64,000 nucleotides of DNA, taken from NCBI RefSeq assembly GCF_964213995.1, contig NC_135828.1, positions 30,380,001-30,444,000 on the forward strand, in the 5' to 3' direction. This document shows, one piece after another, positions 4,357 to 46,740 of the stretch. The position numbers and the translations under genes were made by a program. This DNA is from Mustelus asterias (lineage: Eukaryota). The notes beneath the pieces are model-generated. The model made no database searches. It had not been told where the DNA came from and saw nothing but the letters and a program-made list of their open reading frames with translations. How positions within the stretch are numbered: the first letter of the stretch is position 1; every line of letters starts with the position of its first letter.

Positions 4357-4887
4357 GTGAGGAGAACTGGAGCTTTTGTAAACACCTCTGGGCAGAAAGG
4401 GAAGGTGGTACACATGGCAGGGAGTCAGGGTTCAGAGGGCAGCAGAGGCTGATAGGGTGACAGGGTGGCACAGTGGTTAGTAATGCTGCATCACAGCACC
4501 AGCGATCCGAGTTCGATTCTGACCTTGTGTGACTGTGTGGAGTCTGCACATTCTCCACATGTCTGCATGGGTTTCCTCCGGTTGCTTCGATTTCCTCCCA
4601 CAGTCCAAAGATGTGTAGGTTAGTTGAGGCCATGGTAAATTGCCCCTTAGTGTCCAAAGATTTGTAGGTTACATGGACTGCCATGCTAAATTGCATCTTA
4701 TTGCCAAAGATGTGCAGGTTAGGTGGATTGGTCATGCTAAATTGCTCCTTGGTGCCTAAATATGTGTACGTTAGATGGATTGGCCATGATAAATTGCCCT
4801 TTCGTGTCCAAAGATGTTTAGTTTCGATGGATTAATCGTGATAAATGTGTGGGGTAATGGGGGGGCAGGCCTGGGTAAGGTAATCTC

Positions 4888-9296: not shown

Positions 9297-9900
9297 GTGG
9301 CACGGTGGCACAGCGGTTAGCACTGCTGCCTCTCAGCGCCAGGGATCCGGGTTCAATTCTGACCTCTATTGACTGTGCAGAGTCTGCACGTTCTCCCGTG
9401 TCTGCATGGGTTTCTCCGGGTGCTCCAGTTTCCTCCCACAGTCCAAAGATGTGCAAGTTAGAGAGATTAAGCATGTTAAATTGTCCCTTAGTGTCCCAAG
9501 ACATGTAGGTTAGCGGGGTTGGCCATGCTAAATTGCCCCTTTGTGTCCCAAGACATGTAGGTTAGCGGGGTTGGCCATGCTAAATTGCCCCTTAGTGTTC
9601 CACGATGTGTAATTTAGGTGAAATGGCCATGCTAAAATGCCCCTTAGTGTTCCACAATGTATAGGTTAGGGAGATTGGCCGTGCCCAATTGCCCCTTAAT
9701 GTCCCAAGATGTGTAGGTTAGGTGGATTGGCCATCATAAATTGCCCCTTAGTGTCCCAAGATATGCAGGTTAGGGGGATTAGTTGGGTAAATATGTGGGG
9801 TTATGGAGATATGGGCCTGGGTAAGATGCTCTTTCGGAGAGTTGGTGCAGTCTTGATGGGTGAAATGGCCTGCTTTTGTACTGTAGGGATTCTATGATGA
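9297..9900 (+). mobile_element. HE1-type SINE with about five 58-59-bp tandem units
   Basis: tRNA head at 9297; repeated TAGGTTAG..GG.TTGGCCATGCTAAATTGCCCCTTAGTGTCCC; GGGATTCTATGA tail. Confidence 0.85.
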
Positions 9901-13738: not shown

Positions 13739-14386
13739 TGTAATGGGGAAAATACAAGGGGGGCACACTTTAAAATGGCAATACAAGAAAGCACACTCTA
13801 AAATGGCTGCCTGGCACACAAAGGGTTAACTGGGAAAGCCAAAAGAGCAGTCACAGGCTCCTGCTGTTCAGAAAAACCTAACAGACAAGCCACTTCAAAA
13901 GTACAGACAGTGACTCATAGCAAACAAACACCTCAGGAAGCCAAGCCAAGGGTCAAAACATCTTTTTAAGATAAGGAAACCCCAAAACAAAGAGCTTAGA
14001 TTAACGTTAAAGGAACGTGGGAAATATGAATGCGAGGGAACCGATTAGCACCTGAACGAGACGAAACTAGCCATTGATAGATACAGACATAAGGAGATGT
14101 ACCCATTCATAAAATGCTAAATGTCTATACCTGTTTGTACTTTTGTAAACATGAGGAAATGTACCCATTCATAAAATGTTAAATACTTGTATTCACTTAA
14201 ACAATGTGATAATGTTCGAATCACCGGTTTACCCATTGTGTAAAGGGTATAAAAATGAACCGCTCCTGACATACTATTGAGAGAAAGTTTGCTACAGACA
14301 TGTGCCTTGTCTCCACGGAGCTCCATTTAATAAATCGTATTTTCTGAATCTCGAAGTCTGACTACTAGTGGATTTTTCCCGCAACA
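13739..14386 (+). repeat. ERV 5' LTR (648 bp)
   Basis: TGTAA...CAACA; TATAAAAA about 14248; AATAAA 14329-14334; U3 duplication ATGTACCCATTCATAAAATG. Confidence 0.95.
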
Positions 14387-14388
14387 AA

Positions 14389-14407
14389 TGGCGTAGTCGG
14401 CTAGGAT
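14389..14407 (+). promoter_or_regulatory. ERV primer-binding site, tRNA-Ser
   Basis: TGGCGTAGTCGGC(T)AGGAT is the complement of the vertebrate tRNA-Ser 3' end (...ATCCTGCCGACTACGCCA) with one extra base. Confidence 0.85.
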
Positions 14408-14981
14408 CCTATTACTGGTGAGACCGATTGGCCACGGTCGCAACCGGGGTAGAGATCACGGAATCTGTGAGAGTCGGACTGGATCGGAAAATACGGTTTA
14501 TAAGGGGGAAATATTTGTACTGTGTATTTGTGATAGTATTTGTTATAGTGATAAATACTAACTGCTGATAGGAATAAATAACTGTGATTTGTGCTGATTG
14601 ACAAAAGGACAAGGTAGTGCCTGTCTCAAAACCTCTGCCTTAGACTGGCTATTAAGAGCAGAAATCTGCCACGTGAAGGTCAGGAATTGAAGTGAGTGAG
14701 AGACACCAAGGGCACTAAAGGATTGTGAAGCACAAAAGGGCAGAAGTCGGTTTAACATCACCCTCTGTAGTGGCGAACAGATGCACAGGTGCCAGCTGAT
14801 TGCATGAATGTATTGAAAAGTTGGGAACTGCACTGTCAATGTGGTGAAAAGCGGGGCGGAACAGGAGTTTGATCAACTCTGACCTAAACCGGAATCCGGT
14901 GGAGAAGCACATTGCCGAAGTGGTAATCGTGGAAGCCGTGAGTATAACTTAAAACCCTGTAACGGCAGTGAAACACGGTGT

Positions 14982-15130
14982 GAGAATAGCAATAGTGGCC
15001 GGGGGTAGTGAAGTCCCTATGGTAGTTAGCACACTTTGCTAAGAGTAGTAATAGTGGCCGGGGGTAGTGAAGTCCCTACGGTAGTTAGCACACTTTACTC
15101 AAGAATAATCGTGGCCGGGGTTAGTGAAAT
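14982..15130 (+). repeat. About 2.5 copies of a 57-59-bp tandem repeat in the ERV leader
   Basis: AATAGTGGCCGGGGGTAGTGAAGTCCCTA at 14991 and 15050; partial copy at 15107. Confidence 0.9.
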
Positions 15131-15137
15131 CTGCGAA

Positions 15138-16471
15138 ATGGCAGATAGTGAAGTTAAAAGGGGATCTGCAGGTTCCCTGATTGAAATCTACATGACAGAC
15201 AGGAAGGAGTTAATAAAGAGAATGCAAAAGGATGGCTGGGATACTTCTCAAACCTTAGAGCAGCAGAGAAAGTGGATAGATAAAGAAAAAAGCAGAACGA
15301 AGAAAATAGGAATAATGTTAACACATCAGTTAGCAGGTCTAATTGAACAAATAGTTTCCTCTACGAGGAAATGGAGGGAAGATAAAGAAAGAATTAGAGA
15401 ATTAGAATCCCGAGTGAGGGAACTGGAAAAACAAAATCAGGTTTTAGAAAGGCAAGGGGAGGAGAAACTGATCCTCTACCTTCTTATGAGTCCACCCAGC
15501 AAGGACCAACCGCACCCTCAGAAAAATGGGAACAGCTGGAACACAACTTAGCGCCCATAACTAGAGGGGGGACAGCAGCGCGACCAAAGGCAAATTATAA
15601 ACTTTTTACCCCAGGTGAGAGACAGCAGATAATGGCTTCCCTGGGCAAATTACAAACTAGAAGCGCGAACACTACATTCTGGGAAGAATTAGACACAATC
15701 TGGGTAGGACATCAATTACACCTAAGAGACGTACACCAGCTGGTCACGGCAGCCTGTCCAGCGGATAAGTGGAGGCAGGTAGCAGGGGGACCCGTTGCCC
15801 CTGTAGCACAGGATTATAATGGGGGACGGTGGACACTTGTAATTCCCCTAACAGCAGAGATAGATGCCCAACAGGCCCCCTTCTTACAGTTTAAAGAAGA
15901 AATTCAGAGGGTCTTAGGGAATGCTCCCACTAACTGGAGCAGAATTACCACCACAAAGCAGCTAAAAGGAGAAGGAGCCTCTGAGTACGGGGAACGATTG
16001 TTCCGAATATACCAAGAGTGCTCAGGACAAGGGGACCCAGGACGAGGAGATCGAGCATTCATCCAAGCTTTTAAGGATGGACTCTCTAGTGCCCACCAGA
16101 TCATCCTAAAAATGGGAGTGATCATGTCCCAAAATTACGATGAACTGGTGGAGTGGGCTAGCGGCATCCCAGCGGAAGAGAAACCCCAGGCAAGAGCAAG
16201 GTTAGAAAGAGTAGCAGCCTACAGTAACGGAAGTGAAACAAAACCCAAATTGATTTGCCACAATTGTGGGCAACAGGGGCACTTTGCGAGGGATTGCGGG
16301 ACTCCACGGAGAAAGAGCAAAACTGGGAACAGTGGTAAGCAGTGCAGCCACTGTAAAAGACACGGACATATGGAAGCAGTATGTTGGCATAAGCATGGGA
16401 GACCCCCAGCCCAATCCACGTCCCCAGCTGAACCCCAGGAACAAAAGGACACCCAGGGTCAGCAAGATTGA
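15138..16471 (+). pseudogene. gag: ERV gag, one frameshift near 15460
   Basis: ATG 15138; coiled coil; PTAP at 15506-15517 in the downstream frame; MHR-like QLKGEGASEYGERL; two CCHC knuckles CHNCGQQGHFARDC and CSHCKRHGHMEAVC. Confidence 0.85.
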
Positions 16472-19400
16472 CGGTCTGCAGCCCCCGTTCACAAGGGTAA
16501 AAAGGAGGGAAGGATTTATGTGTCAGCACTGGTAGGGGGCAGACAATGCGAGATGCTAGTGGACACAGGGGCATCCATATCCGTTACCGACCTACCCTTA
16601 CCCACTACAAATAAAATGATTTATCTGACCGGGATAGGAGGGAACAAAACTCCCGCCTACCTGAGCGAGACCACGTTAGTAGAAATAAATAATCTATATA
16701 TCTCAATGAAGTTCTATGTGTGCAGAAATAACGAGGGAACCATAATGGGGAACGATTTAATGAAAGAATATGAGATCTTGATAGATTGTGGGAAGGGAGA
16801 ATTAATTTGGCCAAGACAGGACGGTCGAAAAATTAGAATAGGGAAACTCACAAGTCACCTCGAGACCATTAAGGTGGCCACAGACACCGCCAGAAAATGG
16901 GAGTTAGAGACAGGAGGGTTTGGAGCCATTTGTGCTTCTGTTCCCGGAGTATGGGCTGAAACAAAGTTAGATACCGGTTTAACCGGGACCAGAGCATAAG
17001 CCACACCGGCAGTACCCAATTAAACCAGAAGCAGAGAAAGCTGTAGTAGAAATTGTGAAAGGGTTAGTGGTAAAGGGGATCCTGAGAGAAGCCACGAGCA
17101 CCACTAACTCCCCAACATAGCCAGTGAGTAAACCTGACGGGAGCTATAGGCTCACGATAGATTACACTGGACTTAATAAAGTCACGTCCAAGCTGCACCC
17201 CATTGTAGCAAGCCCTTCGACAATCCTGAATGGACTGTCACAGGAGCATAAAATATTTACAGTACTGGACATAGCTAATGGATTCTGGTCCTTACCCTTG
17301 GATCCTGAATCCCAAGACAAATTTGCATTTACAGTAGGGGACAAGCAGTATACCTGGACCTGTTTATACCATGGCATGAATTCTCTGCCCACTGAGGTGG
17401 TGGAGGCTACCTCGCTGAATATGTTTAAAGCGCGGATGGATGGATTCCTGATCGGTAAGGGAATTAAGGGTTATGGGGATCAGGCGGGTAAGTGGTACTG
17501 ATCCACGTCAGATCAGCCATGATCTTATTGAATGGCGGGGCAGGCTCGAGGGGCTAGATGGCCTACTCCTGCTCCTATTTTTTATGTTCTTATGTTTACC
17601 ACAGGGATTCCACAACAGCCCCCCTATATTCCATCGAGTGATGAGTGACATCCTAAATAGGGTAGAACTGCCAGAGGGTAACACGACCTTACAATATGTA
17701 GACGACATCCTAATAGCTTCAGAGTCCAAGTCAGGACATCAAGAAGCCCTATACTTGGTACTGAATGAATTAAAAGCCGCAGGATTAAAGGTCAGCCCCA
17801 AAAAGGCGCAGATCGGGAAGTCACAGGTCCTATACCTAGGGCACCTTATATCCCAAGGACTTAAAGAAATGCCGGCGGACAGGAAAGAGGAAATACAACA
17901 GATGCCGCGGCCGGTTAATATAAGAGGGGTTAGAAAGGTGCTAGGACTATTCAACTACAGTCGGAGTTTCGTCCCAGGGTTCACAAAACTCGCAGAACCC
18001 ATACAAAGACTCGTTAAAGGGGGGAAGCCAGCTTTAGACCCCGTAGAGTGGGGACCCGAGCAAGACGAAGCTTACACTAAATTAAAAACAGAACTAATAT
18101 CAGCCCCCAGACTAGGCTTACCCGATCTTAACAAAGACTTCCACATTTATTGTAATAATGAGGAAGGGTTCTATTCCGCAATAGTGACACAGGACCATGG
18201 CAACAGAAGGAGACCCATAGGGTATTATTCCACCGCAGAGGGGCCAGTAGTCACTGGACTGCCAAGGTGCATAGCCGCCTTGGATTGCGCCGCATGGGCT
18301 GTAAAGGTTAGCGAGCCAGTAATCATGACAGGGAATATAATCCTCCACACCAAACACACCTTGGTGGAAATGTTGAACACAGGAAAACTAAAGTCAGTCT
18401 CCAACATGAGAAGGGCTAAATGGGAAGCTGTCCTCCTACCTCCCAGCAAGTCCGTAACAATAATAAGGGATACGGGAAATAACCCAGCAGAAGGAATCTT
18501 AGATGGAGGAGAACCCCACAATTGTGGGGATGTGGATGCAGGAGAAGGAGAAGGAAGGATAAAGGACATGCCCCTGGTAACAGCGGAAGAGACCCTCTTT
18601 GTGGATGGGTCACGCAAATATGTGGAAGGATCACCCCGGACAGGATGGGCAGTCGTAAATAGTAAACTAGAAACAGTAAGGTCAGGAAGAATTGACGGAA
18701 GCTTGTCCGCACAAGTGGCAGAACTGGTGGCACTCACCCAGGCACTTGAGTTATCCGAGGGTAAGGCGGTAAACATTTATTCAGACAGTCGCTATGCCTT
18801 CGGAGTCATACATGATTATATGACAGCTTGGGGAAGGAGAGGGTTCATAACCACAGGGGGAACCCCTATCAAGCACCAGCAGAGAATTGAGGCATTGTTG
18901 AGAGCTAGCGAGAGACCTAGAGAAGCCGCAGTAATAAAAATTAAAGCGCACCAGAAGGAGCCCGGAAGAGATAGCCCAGACTGGTTAAATTTCAAAGGGA
19001 ACCAAGCCGCAGATAGGGCAGCACAGATAGCCCTAGAGCAGGAAATGATTGATGAATTGCCAATAGCAACAATAGAACCAACAGAAGCCGAAGTAGACAT
19101 TCAGGGTTTACATGAGGATACTCCAAAGGAAGAAAAGGAGAAGTGGGAAGCTCAGGGAACAGTCAAGGGGACAGATAACATTTGGAGACGAGAAGATAAG
19201 GTAATAGCACCAGAGTGCATACAAAACACCCTATTGGGATTACATCATGGACTCTCACATGTGGGTAGAGAGGCCATGATCACTAATATCGGAAAGGAGT
19301 GGTGGTGGAAGGGAATGGGAAAGGATATTGCCCGACACTGTCACCGATGCGTGACGTGCGCGCAACACAACCCTGGTAGACCCATAAAAATTAAAATGGG

Positions 19401-20235
19401 ACACCAGCCGAGACCCAAGGGACCCTGGGAACATCTACAACTGGATTTTACAGGACCACAGTCCCATGGCAAAACTTACTGTCTGGTCATCATAGACCAG
19501 TTCACCAGGTGGGTGGAAGGGTTCCCAACTTCAAACTGCACTGCTACCACAGTGGCCAGGATATTGGCAGAGGAGGTAATCCCAAGATGGGGGGTACCCC
19601 TACAAATTGATTCGGACCAAGGAACGCACTTCACTGGAAAGGTGATAAAAACAGTATGTCAATTAATGGGGATGAAACAAAAATTTCACATCCCCTACCA
19701 CCCGCAGAGCTCTGGAATGGTGGAGCGTATGAACAGAACACTAAAAAATGCACTTGCCAAGGCCATGCAGACATCAGGGAGAAGGTGGACAGAGGTATTG
19801 CCCACCATACTAATGAAATTAAGGGCGACCACAAACCGGACAACAGGATTAACCCCTTATGAACTAATGACAGGACGGGCGATGCAGTTACCAGAAAGCA
19901 TCATAACAGGTGGGACCGATGTCGGTCCACTAAAAGATAAAATCAAAAGATACATTCTGGATCTGAGCACCCAGCTAAAAGGGATGCGCAAATTGGTAAG
20001 AGATAATCAGGAGATAAAAGATGCACAGAGAGAGCTGGAAATGCTCCCTGACATCCCAACAGTGGGAAGTCGCATCCTAGTGAAAACACTACCCGACAAA
20101 CCAGGGTTTGCACTAAAGTGGAATGAGCCATATGAGATCATAATTAGTGGGGATACCTGTGCCTGTATAGACATAAGAGGGAAAGGTGTCTGGAAGCACT
20201 GGACTCAGCTGAAATTATACAAAGGAGATAAGTAG
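16472..20235 (+). pseudogene. pol: ERV pro-pol (PR, RT, RNase H, IN); frameshift near 16985, TAG at 17118, CR1 insert in RT
   Basis: LVDTGAS, LDIANGFW, LPQG, YVDD, LFVDGS, HHCC, QLDF/DSDQG/GMVER catalytic motifs; 17593-20235 is open. Confidence 0.92.
17367..17592 (+). mobile_element. Short CR1 3' fragment inserted in ERV RT
   Basis: NSLPTEVVEA motif and CR1 tail; TGTTTA duplicated at 17361-17366 and 17593-17598; removal restores WTCL|PQG. Confidence 0.9.
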
Positions 20236-20478
20236 CTAAATCGATGAACTAACAGAACTGCTTTCCTCAACACAGGCAAAGACTGCAAACAAGAGCCGGC
20301 GTGCGCGGGTTAATAAATAAAATAACTGTAAAAAATTGAATTGTAGTGTTAAGTTTTATAACTGTTGCGAATATCTATGTAATCGCGTATGTAATTGTAT
20401 TATTTTGCGTTGTGGCAACTGTAAGTTTGACTGGGCTGGAAGATAATTTGTTTTACAAAGCTCACATACATTTACATG

Positions 20479-23400
20479 TGTGGTGGACCTCAGTTGTGCC
20501 TTTGTCCTATATGGACCACCGTTGTGTGTGTTTGTCATACCTGGACACATCCCCTTCCAGTTTGGTTCCTCCCCTCAGCACCTAGTATAAAGGTGGCTGT
20601 CTCCTCCCCCTTGTTCAGTCCAGGTCGGTTAATTGTTGGGATCTGCTCCTGATTCTGTTGTGAATAAAAGCCTACACTTATATTGGCATATCGGTAGTCT
20701 TTCGCCTTATTGATAGCGCATCAATTTTATTCACAACAGTTACTAGTATGGAGCAGTTTCTAAAACCCGACAAGTTAGCATTAGACCCTCAAGAGGTTGG
20801 AGCCTCTGATAAATTTGATCATTGGTTGGACTGCTTCGAAGCATTCGTCAACACTGCTACGGCCATCGACACCGACGCTGCTAAACTCCACGTGCTCCGC
20901 GCCCGGGTAAGCGAAACTGTCTATGGAATCTTCCGGGACGCTGCTACTTACGCGGACGCTATCGAACTCCAAAAAGGGCAGTTCCGACAGAGCCCTAACG
21001 TGGTTTACGCCAGACACCTCCTAACTACCCGCAAACAGCAGCCAGGAGAATCGTGCGCCCAATTTCTGCGCACCCTGCGAGTCCTCGCCCGAGCATGCGA
21101 CTGTAAGGCTGTTTCAGCAGCTCAGAACACGGAGGATCTGATCCGCGACGCCTACGTTGCGGGCATTGAGTCTACATACATCCAGCAGCGTCTGCTCGAA
21201 CAAGATGACCTAGACCTCCGGAAAACGGCCACGATGGCTGAAACGTTAGAAGCAGCCTCCCATAATCTCGGGTCTTACCTTGGATCCCGTTCCACCGACG
21301 GCTCCACTGCGACGGCTGCTCCAGCAGGGCCCAAATGTTACTTTTGTGGCCTCCCTAAGCACCCTCGGCGTCACTGCCCGGCAAAGGACGCGATTTGCTC
21401 CGGATGTGGTAAGCTAGGCCACTTTGTTAAAGTCTGCAGAGCAAAGCCGCTTCTGAAGACTCGTGGAGCCATGTGTGCTCCGAGGGCGCGGCCATCTTTG
21501 ATGCAGGCGGCGGCTGCGCGCGAATCGCCATCTTGGATGCGGTCACCGGAAGTGCGGGAATCGCCATCTTGGATGCGGTCACCGGAAGTGCGGGAGTCGC
21601 CATCTTTGAGACTGGCATCAAGGCAAGCTGAGCAGGAAGCTTCATCCGTGACGTCATCAGACGGCGACGAAGATGGATTCTTCTTTAATTCAACAGTGGC
21701 ATCGATTTGCCTGGACCAGTCGCAGCCACATCAACTCTCCAAGTCCATAATGGAGATCAAGGGAAATGGTTATGCAGAAAACTGCCTGTTTGACTGTGGG
21801 AGCACGGAAAGTTTTATACACCCTCGCACAGTGCGTCAATATGCCCTTCCCGTGCGACCCTGGAGCCAGACCATCACCATGGCCTCGAATTCTCACTCAG
21901 TGGAGGTCCTCGGGTGCTGCTTGGTGACGCTGACGGTACAGGGCACAGTCTACGAGCGTTTTCGGCTCCTCGTGCTGCCGCGACTCTGCGCAGCTGTACT
22001 GCTCGGGTTAGATTTCCTCAGCCATCATAGAAGCGTCATCCTGCAGTACGATGGCCCTTATCCCCCGCTCTCCGTCTGCAAGGCGCCATCACGGCAGCGC
22101 CCCTCACGCACCACCTGCAGTCTCTCGACCCTCAAGATCACCCCCCCCCCGTTATTTGATAACCTCACCCCGGATTGTAGGCCTATAGCCACCAAGAGTA
22201 GGCGCTATAGTGCGGATGACCGGGCCTTCATTCGGTCCGAGGTACAACGTTTGCTCCAGGAAGGGATTATCCAGGCCAGCACCAGCCCCTGGAGGGCGCA
22301 AGTGGTCGTAGTTAAATCGGGGGAGAAACACCGCATGGTGATTGACTACAGCCAGACCATAAACAGGTATACCCAACTAGATGCATATCCTCTTCCCCGT
22401 ATCGCGGACATAGTCAACCACATCGCGCACTATAGGGTTTTTTCAACGATCGATTTGAAATCGGCTTACCACCAGCTCCCTATCCGCTCGGAGGATCGCC
22501 CATACACTGCCTTTGAGGCGGATGGCCGCCTCTACCAGTTCCTCCGAGTCCCCTTTGGTGTCACCAATGGGGTCTCAGTCTTCCAACGGGCCATGGATCA
22601 AATGGTGGACCAGCACGGACTACGGGCCACTTTCCCGTATCTGGATAATGTCACCGTCTGCGGCCATGACCTGCAGGACCATGATGCCAACCTACAAAAA
22701 TTCCTTCGTACGGCCACTCTCCTGAACCTCACATACAATGAGGCGAAGTGTGTTTTCCGGACACGCCGCCTCGCCATCCTTGGGTACGTGATAGAAAATG
22801 GTGTCCTTGGCCCCGACCCAGCCCGTATGCGTCCCCTTATGCAGCTTCCCCTCCCTACTACCCTCAAAGCACTGAGGAGATGCCTGGGCTTCTTCTCCTA
22901 TTATGCCCAGTGGGTTCCCCGTTACGCAGATAAAGCCCGTCCGCTCCTAAAATCGACCTCTTTTCCCCTGGCGGAGGAGGCCTGTCGGGCCTTCGATGAC
23001 ATCAAAGCGGACATCGCGAAGGCCGCGATGCACGCTGTGGACGAATCCATCCCATTCCAAGTGGAAAGTGATGCGTCTGACTTTGCCCTAGCTGCCACCC
23101 TTAACCAGAGGGGCCGTCCGGTGGCCTTCTTTTCCCGGACCTTACAAGGCCCTGAGATTCGACACTCCTCGGTCGAGAAGGAGGCCCAGGCCATCGTGGA
23201 AGCCGTCCGGCACTGGCGCCATTATCTCGCGGGCCAACGATTCACCTTAATTACGGACCAGCGGTCAGTTGCCTTCCTGTTTAACACCAGGCAAAAGGGC
23301 AAGATTAAGAATGACAAGATCTTGCGGTGGAGGATTGAGCTCTCCACCTACAGATATAACATCATGTACCGGCCTGGGAAGCTCAATGAGCCCCCAGACG

Positions 23401-25008
23401 CCCTGTCCCGTGGATCATGTGCCAGTGCCCAACTAGACCAGCTACAGTCCCTCCATAACGACCTCTGTCACCCGGGTGTCACCAGATTTTTCCATTTTGT
23501 CAAGTCCCGTAACCTGCCCTTCTCCCTTGAGGAAGTCCGGATGATTACCAGGCAATGCAGGGTCTGCGCTGAGTGCAAACCGCAGTTCAACCGGCCAGGT
23601 AGGGCGCACCTTGTAAAGGCCACTCGCGCGTTCGAGCGCCTTAGCGTTGATTTTAAAGGCCCCCTCCCCTCCTCTAACCGCAATGTTTATTTCCTGAATA
23701 TCATTGACGAATACTCACGTTTCCCTTTTGCCTTCCCCTGCTCGGACATGACCACGGCTACAGTGATTCGGACCCTGAACAAGCTCTTCACCCTGTTCGG
23801 CTTCCCAGCCTATATTCATAGCGACCGTGGGTCCTCTTTCATGAGTGACGAGCTGAGGCAGTACCTGCTCGCCAAAGGCGTTGCCTCCAGCCGCACCACT
23901 AGCTATAACCCCAGGGTCAATGGTCAAGTAGAGCGGGAGAACGCAACCGTCTGGAAGGCCGTTCTATTAGCGTTACGGTCTAGGGGCCTTCCAGTCAGCC
24001 GTTGGCAAGACGTCCTTCCGGACGCATTACATTCCATTAGGTCACTCTTGTGCACAGCGACCAATACGACCCCTCACGAGCGGATGTTTTCATTTCCCAG
24101 GAAGTCCTCCTCGGGTACTTCGCTCCCAGATTGGCTGATGTCCCCGGGACCCGTCCTGCTTCGGAAGCATGTCCGGACCCATAAGGCAGATCCCTTGGTC
24201 GAGGAAGTCCAATTGCTCCATGCTAATCCCCAATATACTTATGTAGTGTACCCTGATGGGCGGTAGGACACGGTTTCTGTCCGTGACTTGGCACCCGCGG
24301 GTGCCCCGGAGGTCACCACGTCCTTCCGCCCCACGGTCCCTGGTGTCGTCCATTCGGAGACTGCTACGCCTCTTCCTCCCTCAGTCCCTGTCCCCAATGT
24401 AGTGTGCCCAGAGCCTGTTGCAGCCCCCCACCCCCCAGCTCCGGTTCCCACTGTTCCCCATACGCCACCAGGGCCACTGCTCATTCCTCTCGCCCCTATG
24501 TACAGCTCGCTTGAGTCGCCGGAGCCGTCGCCACGCAGTACCCGACGACTGGACGGGACGACGGATCGGTCCGCTTCACACCACCCAGCGCCTTCTCTCG
24601 ACGCTCACTGTACGGAGCCTGGGCCGACATCGCTCCCTGCTCGGACGACTCTGCGACCTGCACTACGACGATCGCGACGACGGATCAAGCCACCGGTTCG
24701 TCTGGACTTGTGATATTGTTTCCGCTTCACCCCCGTGTTGTTTTTTTAAAAGGAAGGGGTGAATGTGGTGGACCTCAGTTGTGCCTTTGTCCTATATGGA
24801 CCACCGTTGTGTGTGTTTGTCATACCTGGACACATCCCCTTCCAGTTTGGTTCCTCCCCTCAGCACCTAGTATAAAGGTGGCTGTCTCCTCCCCCTTGTT
24901 CAGTCCAGGTCGGTTAATTGTTGGGATCTGCTCCTGATTCTGTTGTGAATAAAAGCCTACACTTATATTGGCATATCGGTAGTCTTTCGCCTTATTGATA
25001 GCGCATCA
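20479..25008 (+). mobile_element. Ty3/Gypsy LTR retrotransposon nested in ERV env
   Basis: 245-bp LTRs (20479-20723, 24764-25008), identical by eye; 5-bp TSD ACATG (20474-20478/25009-25013); PPT AAAAGGAAGGGGTG at 24748. Confidence 0.95.
20748..24713 (+). CDS. Gypsy gag-pol polyprotein (single frame, one in-frame TAG at 24264-24266)
   Basis: Two CCHC knuckles, LFDCGS protease, IDLKSAYHQ/PFG/YLDN RT, DASD RNase H, HHCC+DDE integrase in PR-RT-RH-IN order; ORF 24288-24713 is in the same frame. Confidence 0.9.
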
Positions 25009-26448
25009 ACATGGGAATCGGACTGTATGTTACCCGTTAACACAATCTGTAGAAGCCCTATTTGTAGCCACCCCTGGGTGGACCCCTCATGACTTATATA
25101 CTGTAGATACATCAGAGACACCCTGCAAGGGACAAATTGGCAAATATAAAAGAGGTTTACAGGGGAGATGTGTGGGACTTGTAAACCCCACAAATCCTAC
25201 ATGCAAGGGCTCCCAAAAGGAGGGAGGAAAAGCTTGCCCAGAGACTGCAAGCTATCCGCTTTGTTTCACGGGGCAGGGATGGGGATGTGCCTATGCCTTA
25301 GTCCCTAAGAATGATTCTTGTGTACAGACACAGTGTGTCCGTCAACATTGTCAGATTAACAAGGGACAGATTACTTGTATTTGTGACGAATGGAAATGTT
25401 TAAATATAACCGCGGGAAGACAGCTTATTTGTGGACAGTGTAATGGAACTCACGTAAGCTCAGCCAAATGGACATACCCCTTTGATACTTACCAGGTGGT
25501 GGGATCAAACGGGAAGCCAAATAAACTGAACAATTGGCAGTATGAGCAAACTCATAATCAGGACACTAAATGTTACCGGTCTAAGAAGGGGTATGTATTC
25601 CTCTTCAATGGTACCTACATGACAGAAACACCAAACCTCCCAGACCGTTTTGCGGTAGGAACAATCGGGTCACTGACTGTTCCATGCCCTCAGAAGGGGT
25701 ACATTCGGAGGAGAATAGTAACCCGGGCTATTAGCAGGGAATTCTGCGCTGACTGGGAAGCCCCGGGTACACTAGGATCCTCACTGGGGTATGGGTTCCT
25801 CGGAGCGTATCTCTTGGAGGGTCAGCCGGGGTAATTGGAGCAAAGAATAGAAACCATATTGTTTGTGGGCTAACAATCCTGGGAAACAGCACTTCAAAAG
25901 CATTGGAGGCTGTCAACCAAGAAATGGCTGAATTAAGATTGTATGCTCAGCAGACATGATACGCAGTGGACTACCAGTTAGCACAACAAGGGGGAGTATG
26001 TGCAATCATAGGCAACAAATGCATAACCCATGTCACAGATGAGTCTTACAATATTACACAGGTCATCAATGACATCAGGAAACAACTTGATAACTTTAGA
26101 CAGGGACCCAGGAGAGGAAGTAGTTGGCTGGCATGGCTGGTGGGATAATCCTGGGAATCGTACCTGTTACATGGATTGGTCATACTCATTGTCATTATAA
26201 TTGTCTGTTGTCTGACTGTGGGATGTCTTAAAGTCTGTTTTAAGATAATGTTGACAAGAATTGTGTCAGGAGCCAGTGTGTACATCGAAGAAGAGCCCCT
26301 AATGAAGATCCCCGAAGACGTCAGAAGAAATGAAGATACTGGAAGAAATAAAGACATCAAAAGAAGCAAAGAAGGAGAGAAGAACGAAGACCTGTATATG
26401 TGAATGTATGATTGTTGGTCTGAGGATTGTCCAAGCTATAATCCGACC

Positions 26449-26460
26449 AAAAGGAGGGAC
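26449..26460 (+). promoter_or_regulatory. ERV polypurine tract
   Basis: AAAAGGAGGGAC immediately before the 3' LTR. Confidence 0.85.
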
Positions 26461-27109
26461 TGTAAAGGGGAAAATACAAGGGGGGGCACACTTTAAAATG
26501 GCAATATAAGAAAGCACACTCTAAAATGGCTGCCTGGCACACAAAGGGTTAACTGGGAAAGCCAAAAGAGCAGTCACAGGCTCCTGCTGTTCAGAAAAAC
26601 CTAACAGACAAGCCACTTCAAAAGTACAGACAGTGACTCATAGCAAACAAACACCTCAGGAAGCCAAGCCAAGGGTCAAAACATCTTTTTAAGATAAGGA
26701 AACCCCAAAACAAAGAGCTTAGATTAACGTTAAAGGAACGTGGGAAATATGAATGCGAGGGAACCGATTAGCACCTGAATGAGACGAAACTAGCCATTGA
26801 TAGATACAGACATAAGGAGATGTACCCATTCATAAAATGCTAAATGTCTATACCTGTTTGTACTTTTGTAAACATGAGGAAATGTACCCATTCATAAAAT
26901 GTTAAATACTTGTATTCACTTAAACAATGTGATAATGTTCGAATCACCGGTTTACCCATTGTGTAAAGGGTATAAAAATGAACCGCTCCCGACATACTAT
27001 TGAGAGAAGGTTTGCTACAGACATGTGCCTTGTCTCCACGGAGCTCCATTTAATAAATTGTATTTTCTGAATCTCGAAGTCTGACTACTAGTGGATTTTT
27101 CCCACAACA
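26461..27109 (+). repeat. ERV 3' LTR (649 bp)
   Basis: About 7 substitutions and 1 indel relative to the 5' LTR, counted by eye. Confidence 0.95.
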
Positions 27110-36160: not shown

Positions 36161-36496
36161 GGGCGGCACAGTAGCACAGTGGTTAGCACTGCTGCTTCAC
36201 AGCTCCAGGGACCTGGGTTCGATTCCCGGCTTGGGTCACTGTCTGTGTGGAGTTTGCACATTCTCCTCGTGCCTGCGTGGGTTTCCTCCCACAGTCCAAA
36301 GATGTGCGGGTTAGGTTGATTGGCCATGCTAAAATTGCCCCTTAATGTCCTGGGATGCATAGATTAGAGGAATTAGCGGGTAAATATGTAGGGATATGGG
36401 GGTAGGGCCTGGGTGGGATTGTGGTCGGTGCAGACTCGATGGGCCGAATGGCCTCTTTCTGTACTGTAGGGTTTCTATGATTTCTATGATTTCTAT
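36161..36496 (+). mobile_element. HE1 SINE
   Basis: Full head and (TTTCTATGA)n tail. Confidence 0.9.
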
Positions 36497-38152
36497 ACAT
36501 CTTTGGACACGGAGGGGCAATTTAGCAAGTCCAATCCAACTAATCTGCATATCTTTAGACACGGAGGGTCAAGTTACCATATCCAATCCACATGACCTGC
36601 ACATCTTTGGGCACCACGGGGCAATTAATCATGGCCAATCCATCTAAACTGCAGATCCTTGAGCAGTAAGTGACAATGTAAAATGACCAATCCAATTGGT
36701 CAGTATTTGGAATACTGCGTCCAGTTCTGGTCGCCACACTACCAGAAGGACGTGGAGGCTTTGGAGAGAGTACAGAGGAGGTTTACCAGGATGTTGCCTG
36801 GTATGGAGGGGCTTGGTTATGAGGAGAGATTGGGGAAACTGGGGTTGTTCTCCTTGGAAAGATGGAGGATGAGGGGAGACTTAATAGAGGTGTATAAAAT
36901 TATGAAAGGCATAGATAGGGTGAACGGTGGGAAGCTTTTCCCCGGGTCGGTGGTGACGTTCACGAGGGGTCATAGGTTCAAGGTGAAGGGGGGGAGGTTT
37001 AACACAGATATCAGAAGGACATATTTTACACAGAGGGTCGTGGGGGCCTGGAATGTGTTGCCGGGCAAGGTGGTGGAGGCGGACACACGGGGAACGTTTA
37101 AGACTTATCTAGACAGCTATATGAACGGAGTGGGAATGGAGGGATACAAAAGAGTGGTCTAGTTTGGACCAGGGAGCGGCGCGGGCTAATTGTTCTTTGT
37201 TTCTCGTTTCAAGGCTTCATTCTATGATCATCTTGCTGGTGCCAGTACAGAGCGAGACTTCGGATAGTTGGGAACCTGTCTCGGGGGCAGGGAATTCAGA
37301 TGGTGTTCGTAAAGCAGAAGTGGAAATGAATAGGGTTGGGAAGCATTTTCTGATCAGGGCCAGTGTGATCTCCTGGACTCGTTTCGATCGCCTCAGGGGG
37401 TCGGAGAGGAATTTCCCAGATTTTTTTTTCCCCCATATTGGCCCTGGGGTTTTCACTCTGGGTTTTCGCCTCTCCCTGGAGATCACATGGTCTGGAATGG
37501 GGGGGTGGGGGTGAGTTAATAGGTTGTGATGAACAAAGCATCGTAGCTGTGAGGGACAGCTCGGTGGATAGGATATTAGGATGTAGATAGGCTGGAAAAT
37601 TGGGCGGGGATCCTGGATTCAGGATTCAATCCTGGACCGGCGAGCGGCGCGGGCTTGGAGGGCCGAAGGGCCTGTTCCTGTGCTGTATTGTTCTTTGTTC
37701 TTGTTCAATTAATCTACACATCTTTTGACACGAAGAGGCAATTTACCATGGCCAATATGCCTAACCCACAAATCTTTGGACACTAAGGGGCAGTTTAGCA
37801 TAATCAATCCAATTAACCTATAGATCTTTGGACGGTAAGGAGCAATTTAGCATGACCAATCCATCTAACCTGCACACCTTTGGGCACGAAGGGGCAATTT
37901 ACCTTTCATATCCACCTAACTTGTTCATCCTAACTTGTACATCGTTCGACACTAAGAGACAAGTTAGCATCGCTTAATCCAGCTAACCTGCACATCTTTG
38001 GACACGAAAGGACAATTTAGCTTGGCCAATCCACCTAACCTGCAAATGTTTGGACAGTAAGGGGCAATTTACACTATCCAATACACCTAACCTACATATT
38101 GTTGGACAATATAGAGAAATTTAGCATGGCTAATCGATCTGACCTACATATC
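36497..38152 (-). repeat. Expanded minus-strand array of HE1 internal ~58-bp units, interrupted by a CR1
   Basis: More than 10 degenerate ACATCTTTGGACAC..AGGGGCAATTTAGCATGGCCAATCCA.CTAAC units at 36497-36698 and 37707-38152. Confidence 0.75.
36699..37705 (+). mobile_element. CR1 3' portion with long 3' UTR
   Basis: LEYCVQFWSPHYQKD...FTQRVVGAWN; tail TGCTGTATTGTTCTTTGTTCTT. Confidence 0.9.
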
Positions 38153-38164
38153 TTATTCCTCGAA

Positions 38165-46151: not shown

Positions 46152-46740
46152 AGGGCGGAATGGTGGCACAATGGTTAGCATTGCTGCCTCACAGCGCCAA
46201 TGACCAGGGTTCAAATCCAACTTTGGGTGGCTGTCTGTGTGGACTATGCACGTTCTCCCCGTTGCCATGCTAAATTGACCCCTCGGGTCCAAACATATGT
46301 AGGTTTGATGGATTGACCATGCTAAATTATCATTTAGAGTCCAAAGATGTGTAGGTTAGGTGGTTTGGCCATGCTAAATTGTCCCATGGTGTCCACAGAT
46401 GTGCGGGTTAGGTTCATTAGCCATGATAACCTGCCCCTATTGTCCAAAGTTGTGGATTGGCCACATTAATGCATGGAATTACCTGGATAGGGTATGGGTA
46501 AGTTGCCCGAAGCAGAGGCAGAAATTGCTGAAACATGGAGAGAGGATAGAGCCAATGTTTTAATTCAGGATACCCCTGCTCTCTCTTCAGATGCTGTCAG
46601 GCCTGTTCCGATTTTCCAGCATTTTCTGTTTTTCTTTCCGATTCCAGCATCCGCAGTATTTTGCCTTTACGCTCTTTCGGAGAGTCTGTGCAGACCTGAT
46701 GGACCGAATGACCTCCTTCTGCCCTGTAGGGATTGTATGG
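46152..46740 (+). mobile_element. HE1-type SINE with tandem units, split by a short repeat at about 46505-46670
   Basis: Head at 46152; tail resumes at GCTCTTTCGGAGAGTC near 46671. Confidence 0.75.

Follow-up and report, generated by a model that had tools for sequence, protein, structure and literature searches.

A Gypsy LTR retrotransposon in the genome of Mustelus asterias very probably primes its own reverse transcription with a segment of its own sequence, free of tRNA. The element occupies positions 20479–25008 of the window, the 64 000-nucleotide stretch of DNA analysed here. Its LTRs are 245 nt long (TG…CA) and mutually identical, and they enclose a single gag-PR-RT-RH-IN frame, which in this copy is ended by a premature stop in the C-terminal region of integrase. 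The initial annotation had claimed that the PBS lacks TGG and is an exact 15-nt reverse complement of an LTR segment that recurs in the 3′ LTR, and all of this was confirmed. A TATA box at 20586 was also borne out, and the RNA start that the annotation predicted near 20615 is refined by an Inr-like motif to a predicted +1 at A20617. The features are as follows.

20474–20478, + strand: 5-bp TSD ACATG, second copy at 25009–25013
20479–20723, + strand: 5′ LTR, 245 nt, TG…CA, same sequence as the 3′ LTR
20586–20591, + strand: TATA box TATAAA
20615–20619, + strand: Inr-like TCAGT, with +1 at A20617 predicted from promoter motifs
20643–20649, + strand: outer helix arm CUGCUCC, with a partner at 20750–20756 across the gag start predicted by folding
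20655–20669, + strand: putative self-primer segment ending in AATAAAA, predicted 3′-OH at 20669 (TAAAA^GCC)
20663, + strand: AATAAA
20670–20688, + strand: residual R for strand transfer, up to the candidate poly(A) CA at 20687–20688, a presumed site
20724, + strand: spacer A between 5′ LTR and PBS
20725–20739, + strand: PBS TTTTATTCACAACAG, exact reverse complement of 20655–20669, 1 nt past the LTR terminal CA
20748–24266, + strand: gag-PR-RT-RH-IN in a single frame, with two CCHC knuckles and RT motif YLDN
24748–24759, + strand: polypurine tract AAAAGGAAGGGG, 4 nt upstream of the 3′ LTR
24764–25008, + strand: 3′ LTR, carrying the second segment copy at 24940–24954

The window element is a young, high-copy, chromodomain-less Gypsy LTR retrotransposon. 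It has the TG…CA LTRs, TSD, polypurine tract and PR-RT-RH-IN order of Ty3/Gypsy members, its top PDB match is the Ty3 RT (E 5.5e-51), and the RNase H acidic motifs are present. Two pieces of the window sequence and four full-length relatives were searched for a chromodomain, and none was detected at E ≤ 0.1. The 3.68-Gb genome holds 559 exact LTR–PBS junctions, and the PBS is identical in all 30 copies fetched, which were chosen as 100%-identity matches. A search of Rfam with 20479–20800 returned no matches at E ≤ 1. The element is nested in an endogenous retrovirus (approx. 13739–27109), after pol in the presumed env region; env is presumed by position, and Pfam gave no confirmation of it. 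This host element has LTRs of about 650 nt that are 97.7% identical, a gag knuckle, protease and pol, and a TGG-type PBS near 14389. SINE copies are abundant elsewhere in the window (4600–4850, 9400–9850, 36490–38160 and 46200–46440), some with tandem 52-nt units.

The complementarity between 20725–20739 and 20655–20669 extends no further on either side. Chance matches to the LTR never exceeded 9 nt among 794 internal 25-nt windows or 11 nt among 2000 LTR shuffles; the one observed has 15. Folding predicts the helix with a pairing probability of 0.94–0.97 across all 12 choices of start and end, and a small GCC…GGC hairpin within the residual R (20670–20688) would stack on the predicted cut site. 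The predicted outer helix (20643–20649 with 20750–20756) covers the gag AUG, and similar pairings are seen by eye in sister families.

The duplex recurs throughout the relatives. In total, 128 loci were examined, and 72 of them have a gag start preceded by at least 130 nt. Among the 41 from other genomes, 33 carry a perfect inverted repeat of 11–19 bp at the same place. The other eight are diverse: L151 keeps 12 of 13 pairs in register, L104 is a mutated copy of a duplex-positive family, L156 fails the duplex pattern and has three G–U pairs, and no duplex was found in L098–L100, L124 and L128. Of 30 older copies from the window genome, 19 retain an unbroken duplex of 13 bp or more; in the other 11 it is interrupted. 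Of a further 40 regions, 39 have a gag start and 37 of these reach at least 12 of 13 pairs. In L106, skipped in the count for its short flank, the duplex is visible by eye.

Pairing is preserved while sequence changes. Twenty-six family representatives were hand-picked; L098–L100, L124 and L128 were left out, since the three of them that were tested yielded no LTR pair. The duplex is kept in the same register, with differing sequences, by 25 of the 26. Pairing occurs at the first base after CA+1 in 24 of 26 and at the preceding base in none; 24–26 representatives pair at each position through 13, after which the numbers drop to 19, 14, 14 and 8. At least 13 of 14 pairs are reached by 23 of 26, against a maximum of 12 of 14 in 236 control searches inside gag. 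Positions 1–13 of 25 representatives (L156 left out, register re-chosen with G–U given equal credit) comprise 319 WC pairs, six mismatches and no G–U pair in 325 cells, counts that are not independent events because the families are related. In the same comparison, the predicted loop helices contain 31 G–U among 254 pairs. The covariation check suggested by the initial annotation was run on 19 sister sequences of the window genome, where 95.1% of cells are paired (40–52% in slid controls). Two-sided changes affect 11 of 15 pairs, and 0 of 500 shuffles scored as high, a control that relatedness inflates. Compensation can be seen in L108, which carries a one-base change in both LTRs and a compensating PBS change, all absent from its five sister copies. 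Many different PBS sequences coexist within the window genome, each matching its own LTR. Pure WC pairing with no G–U is the expected outcome of PBS re-copying from the primer, and covariation whose register is tied to the LTR end is the trace that a primer copied into the plus strand would be expected to leave. The conserved motif at the segment end is TAAA followed by RCCT (cut notation TAAA^RCC), not AATAAA. In 17 of 25 families (7.4 expected from shuffles) the RCC opens a small hairpin on the cut side, and a helix at the U5 end shows no enrichment over shuffles (7 of 25, 6.2 expected).

Promoter geometry suggests where the primer lies. In window genome families, 37 of 39 sister copies have a TATA–Inr spacing of 31–33 nt, whereas between 77 and 107 nt separate TATA from the segment end. 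Because the former is fixed and the latter is not, the primer segment is probably internal to the RNA, unlike the first 11 nt used by Tf1, at a predicted +39 to +53 from the +1 at 20617. We modestly favour the view that the minus-strand primer is this internal 5′-leader segment, cut out by RNase H. The internal position proposed by the initial annotation thus gains indirect support, from promoter geometry and from a single fold-back insertion (L279, below).

The mechanism proposed runs as follows. (i) Transcription would start at about 20617. (ii) A helix between +39 to +53 and the PBS, set 1 nt away from the LTR end, is supported by folding and covariation; the small hairpin is presumably stacked on its cut side. 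(iii) By analogy with Tf1, the element's RNase H would cut after 20669, at AAUAAAA^GCC, leaving a 3′-OH. (iv) RT would copy 20724 to 20670 and then jump to the 3′ end; for this transfer, a cut at 20669 would leave a residual R of about 19 nt, up to the candidate poly(A) site. (v) The plus strand would copy about 13–17 nt of the primer and so rewrite the PBS as a pure WC complement in each cycle, in keeping with the sequence comparisons above. (vi) Occasionally the plus strand would fold back on its own R and integrate as a palindromic mini-element, a step seen as fossils. Masking of the 5′ poly(A) signal may bring some families an added advantage. That the primer is copied during plus-strand synthesis is textbook biology; for Tf1 it is reportedly treated by Atwood-Moore 2006. 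A 53-nt leader primer needs a stop of plus-strand copying at 13–17 nt, and such a stop is hypothesized here. Removal of the primer at the polymerase–RNase H spacing of RT would free the plus strand after about 13 nt. According to the available text of PMC11363490, Ty3 RT cuts RNA 11–12 nt from the polymerase site, which would fit the 13-bp floor of the duplex.

Over-copying or fold-back was predicted to leave an LTR end joined to a longer complement, and the genome was searched on this premise. Fourteen integrated fold-back copies with 5-bp TSDs, new in this analysis, were found in the window family, against 559 normal junctions, and three other families gave 10, 11 and 8 exact matches to the pattern (L268–L281 and L282–L310 are the loci of all four families). 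A script found exact TSDs in 13 of the 14, and inspection by eye found one in the last; these insertions are therefore independent integrase products. Seven have the simple form of LTR, A and inverted U3-R; a second fold-back is present in five, a switch at 20506 in one, and the last is L279, described below. Some twice-folded mini-elements of the four families end in inverted U5. The two arms of the seven simple fossils have 19 variants in common and 8 private ones. In L273, eight A-to-G changes are present in both arms, two of them in R. They affect the sense strand of U3 and R and are absent from the loop and PBS. This cluster resembles ADAR editing, which would have acted on the RNA before reverse transcription. 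Because the arms share variants, the L273 cluster included, fold-back of one RNA-derived plus strand is indicated. The fossils show that the duplex serves as a primer–template for cDNA. They are compatible with any R copy priming the minus strand and could also form after second strand transfer. Taken with the covariation in fixed register, they leave the claim of tRNA-free self-priming well supported.

One fossil bears on the RNA start. The complement in L279 ends at 20615–20621, spanning the predicted +1, and from there a 7-nt microhomology jump leads into inverted internal sequence, which would fit read-through to a cap at 20617. Of five early-stopping arms, L279 alone ends at the predicted start; stops at 38, 164, 167 and 222 nt were found in the rest, and a sixth arm is interrupted by another repeat. 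A stop near the Inr in L309 was dropped as start-site evidence: another repeat begins there, and an ordinary copy carries a similar repeat at the same site. A short unrelated repeat, presumably Penelope-like, recurs at the Inr position of the LTRs of L048, L049, L181 and L309, which suggests target preference.

Two rival explanations dispense with self-priming by this segment. That a host tRNA or tRNA fragment primes at the PBS would be the default for Gypsy elements, but here it is very improbable. None of the 26 representative PBSs starts with TGG, TGG sites do occur in two outgroup elements and in the surrounding endogenous retrovirus, and one genome contains many PBS sequences, each suited to its own LTR. 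The tRNA search that the initial annotation called for (63 scored matches, 30 loci fetched) sampled part of the host set, 26 distinct tRNA genes of few isotypes, mostly Thr, among which the longest match to the segment is 7 nt. There are no tRNA genes in the window. Priming by tRNA is largely refuted by the covariation. Less remote, but still unlikely, is a purely regulatory hairpin that would mask the gag start or else the 5′ poly(A) signal, or a PBS that results from DNA fold-back for second strand transfer, with some other primer starting the minus strand. DNA fold-back on the duplex does happen, as the fossils attest, AAUAAA is predicted to be paired in the 5′ leader, and a canonical A(A/T)TAAA lies inside the stem in 16 of 26 families. 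A regulatory stem, however, should tolerate G–U pairs and shifts, whereas the 325 cells contain no G–U and the register is tied to the LTR end. The stem hexamer is non-canonical in 10 of 26 families, and in L081 and L084 the canonical one lies in the loop. AAUAAA is predicted to be largely paired in the 3′ copy as well, so that folding of the two copies gave no clean contrast between a masked 5′ and a free 3′ signal. With TAAA^RCC rather than AATAAA as the conserved motif, poly(A) masking is secondary at most. The masking proposed by the initial annotation is the less well supported half of its interpretation.

Two other readings keep the segment as primer and change its source; both are improbable, to the same degree, though less so than a regulatory hairpin. 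In a classic Tf1-type arrangement, the RNA would start at or near the 5′ end of the segment (about 20655), and its first 11–15 nt would be the primer. A short 5′-terminal primer would account for the 13–17-nt limit without an extra stop, and the L120 duplex is exactly 11 bp. Tf2 has alternative start sites (available text of PMC5341516). A clear TATA box is missing from most invertebrate LTRs, the final 11 nt of the segment share a loose consensus, and 4 of 26 families place an Inr-like motif 10 nt ahead of the segment end, which leaves room in invertebrate families for a Tf1-like 5′ primer. In the window genome, by contrast, TATA and Inr keep their spacing at a place some 40 nt or more upstream, whereas the distance to the segment ranges over 30 nt; pairing continues beyond 11 nt in most families (24 of 26 are WC at position 13), and the L279 complement runs on to the upstream Inr. 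Alternatively, the same segment could be supplied by the R copy at the 3′ end or by a short LTR transcript made separately, in either case trimmed to AAUAAAA-3′. The sequence would be identical and the covariation would fit equally well, and fossils with U3-R directly joined to a minus-strand U5 copy fit primer read-through. Against this stand the variants common to both fossil arms, such as the L273 cluster, which point to one cDNA and not two RNAs; the local helix, predicted at P 0.94–0.97; and the loss of the poly(A) tail and downstream R that trimming of a 3′ copy would entail.

In protein searches, the closest named proteins are from rays and catsharks, and named relatives occur in cnidarians, nematodes, insects, crustaceans, sea cucumbers and a tunicate. 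No relatives were found among viral contigs. Several bacterial MAGs in the genome collection hold contigs of animal-type retrotransposons (L031–L047), which suggests host contamination. A quick RT-RH tree, from which 6 of 51 rows were dropped as too short and which holds no Tf1 or sushi sequence, separates a 39-row clade from a 6-row outgroup with support 99, long branches meeting at the root; two outgroup elements have a TGG-type PBS. The clade of the window element is possibly Cigr-1. Cigr-1 elements have short LTRs and a single ORF of about 1200 aa, and the relatives found here match that description. The Cigr-1 clade (Ciona, molluscs, annelids) has been placed under the Mag lineage and occurs in several invertebrate phyla (PMC6238403, PMC8556966, available text). 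The main text of those papers, as far as available, contains no mention of a PBS.

Tf1 and Tf2 of Schizosaccharomyces pombe, Tj1, Tosmo and the Tf1/sushi chromoviruses resemble the window clade in having, beside the 5′ LTR and without tRNA, a PBS complementary to their own LTR. The Tf1 primer is released by an RNase H cut between nt 11 and 12 (PMC7175516) and sits in a three-duplex ‘pretzel’ (bioRxiv 2022.12.06.519325), as stated in the available portions of those sources. The window clade differs in several respects. No chromodomain was found in it, and its duplex is 13–17 bp long against 11 in Tf1. In the window element, the segment apparently sits some 39 nt in from the RNA start, and it overlaps the poly(A) signal. 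Where Tf1 has two PBS-flanking duplexes, the window clade has the cut motif TAAA^RCC and a local hairpin, recognized here from sequence alone. The window clade appears to work like Tf1 and yet is not classed as Tf1/sushi, since no chromodomain was found and its primer appears internal. Self-priming has also been predicted, from a PBS–5′ LTR match of at least 10 bp, for the TAR lineage of plant Ty1/copia (Houba, Osr-1) and for Tcn1 chromoviruses (PMC6317226, available text). As TAR is Copia, the prediction extends outside chromoviruses. These belong to another superfamily or clade and have plant hosts, and an internal primer, a cut motif and fold-back products are not described for them in the available text of PMC6317226. 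No description of self-priming in the window clade was found in the openly accessible literature searched, including the available text of PMC3601003, PMC4600332, PMC5006619 and PMC2774666; subscription papers, the original Cigr-1 paper, Repbase or GyDB may note it.

A wider proposal, to which we give slightly less than an even chance, is that self-priming arose, independently of Tf1/sushi, in a pan-metazoan Gypsy clade with named relatives in cnidarians, nematodes, arthropods, echinoderms, tunicates and cartilaginous fish. Its members would cut their own capped leader internally, at a conserved TAAA^RCC helix–hairpin junction overlapping the poly(A) signal. The PBS would be regenerated from the primer in each cycle, with its length set by polymerase–RNase H spacing, and palindromic fold-back insertions would be a by-product. 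Self-priming has been regarded as characteristic of Tf1/sushi chromoviruses, and one plant Copia lineage is predicted to use it; if the proposal is true, a large chromodomain-less self-priming clade in animals would be another origin of tRNA independence. An internal primer would likewise be a new geometry, in which RT cuts within a capped leader and strand transfer has some 19 nt of R to work with. How a retroelement RNase H cuts an RNA–RNA duplex is directly testable here, given the short leader, the conserved cut motif and the natural series of compensatory changes. Tools that demand a tRNA PBS would miss or mis-score the window clade, and the host acquires palindromic DNA from the fold-back mini-elements.
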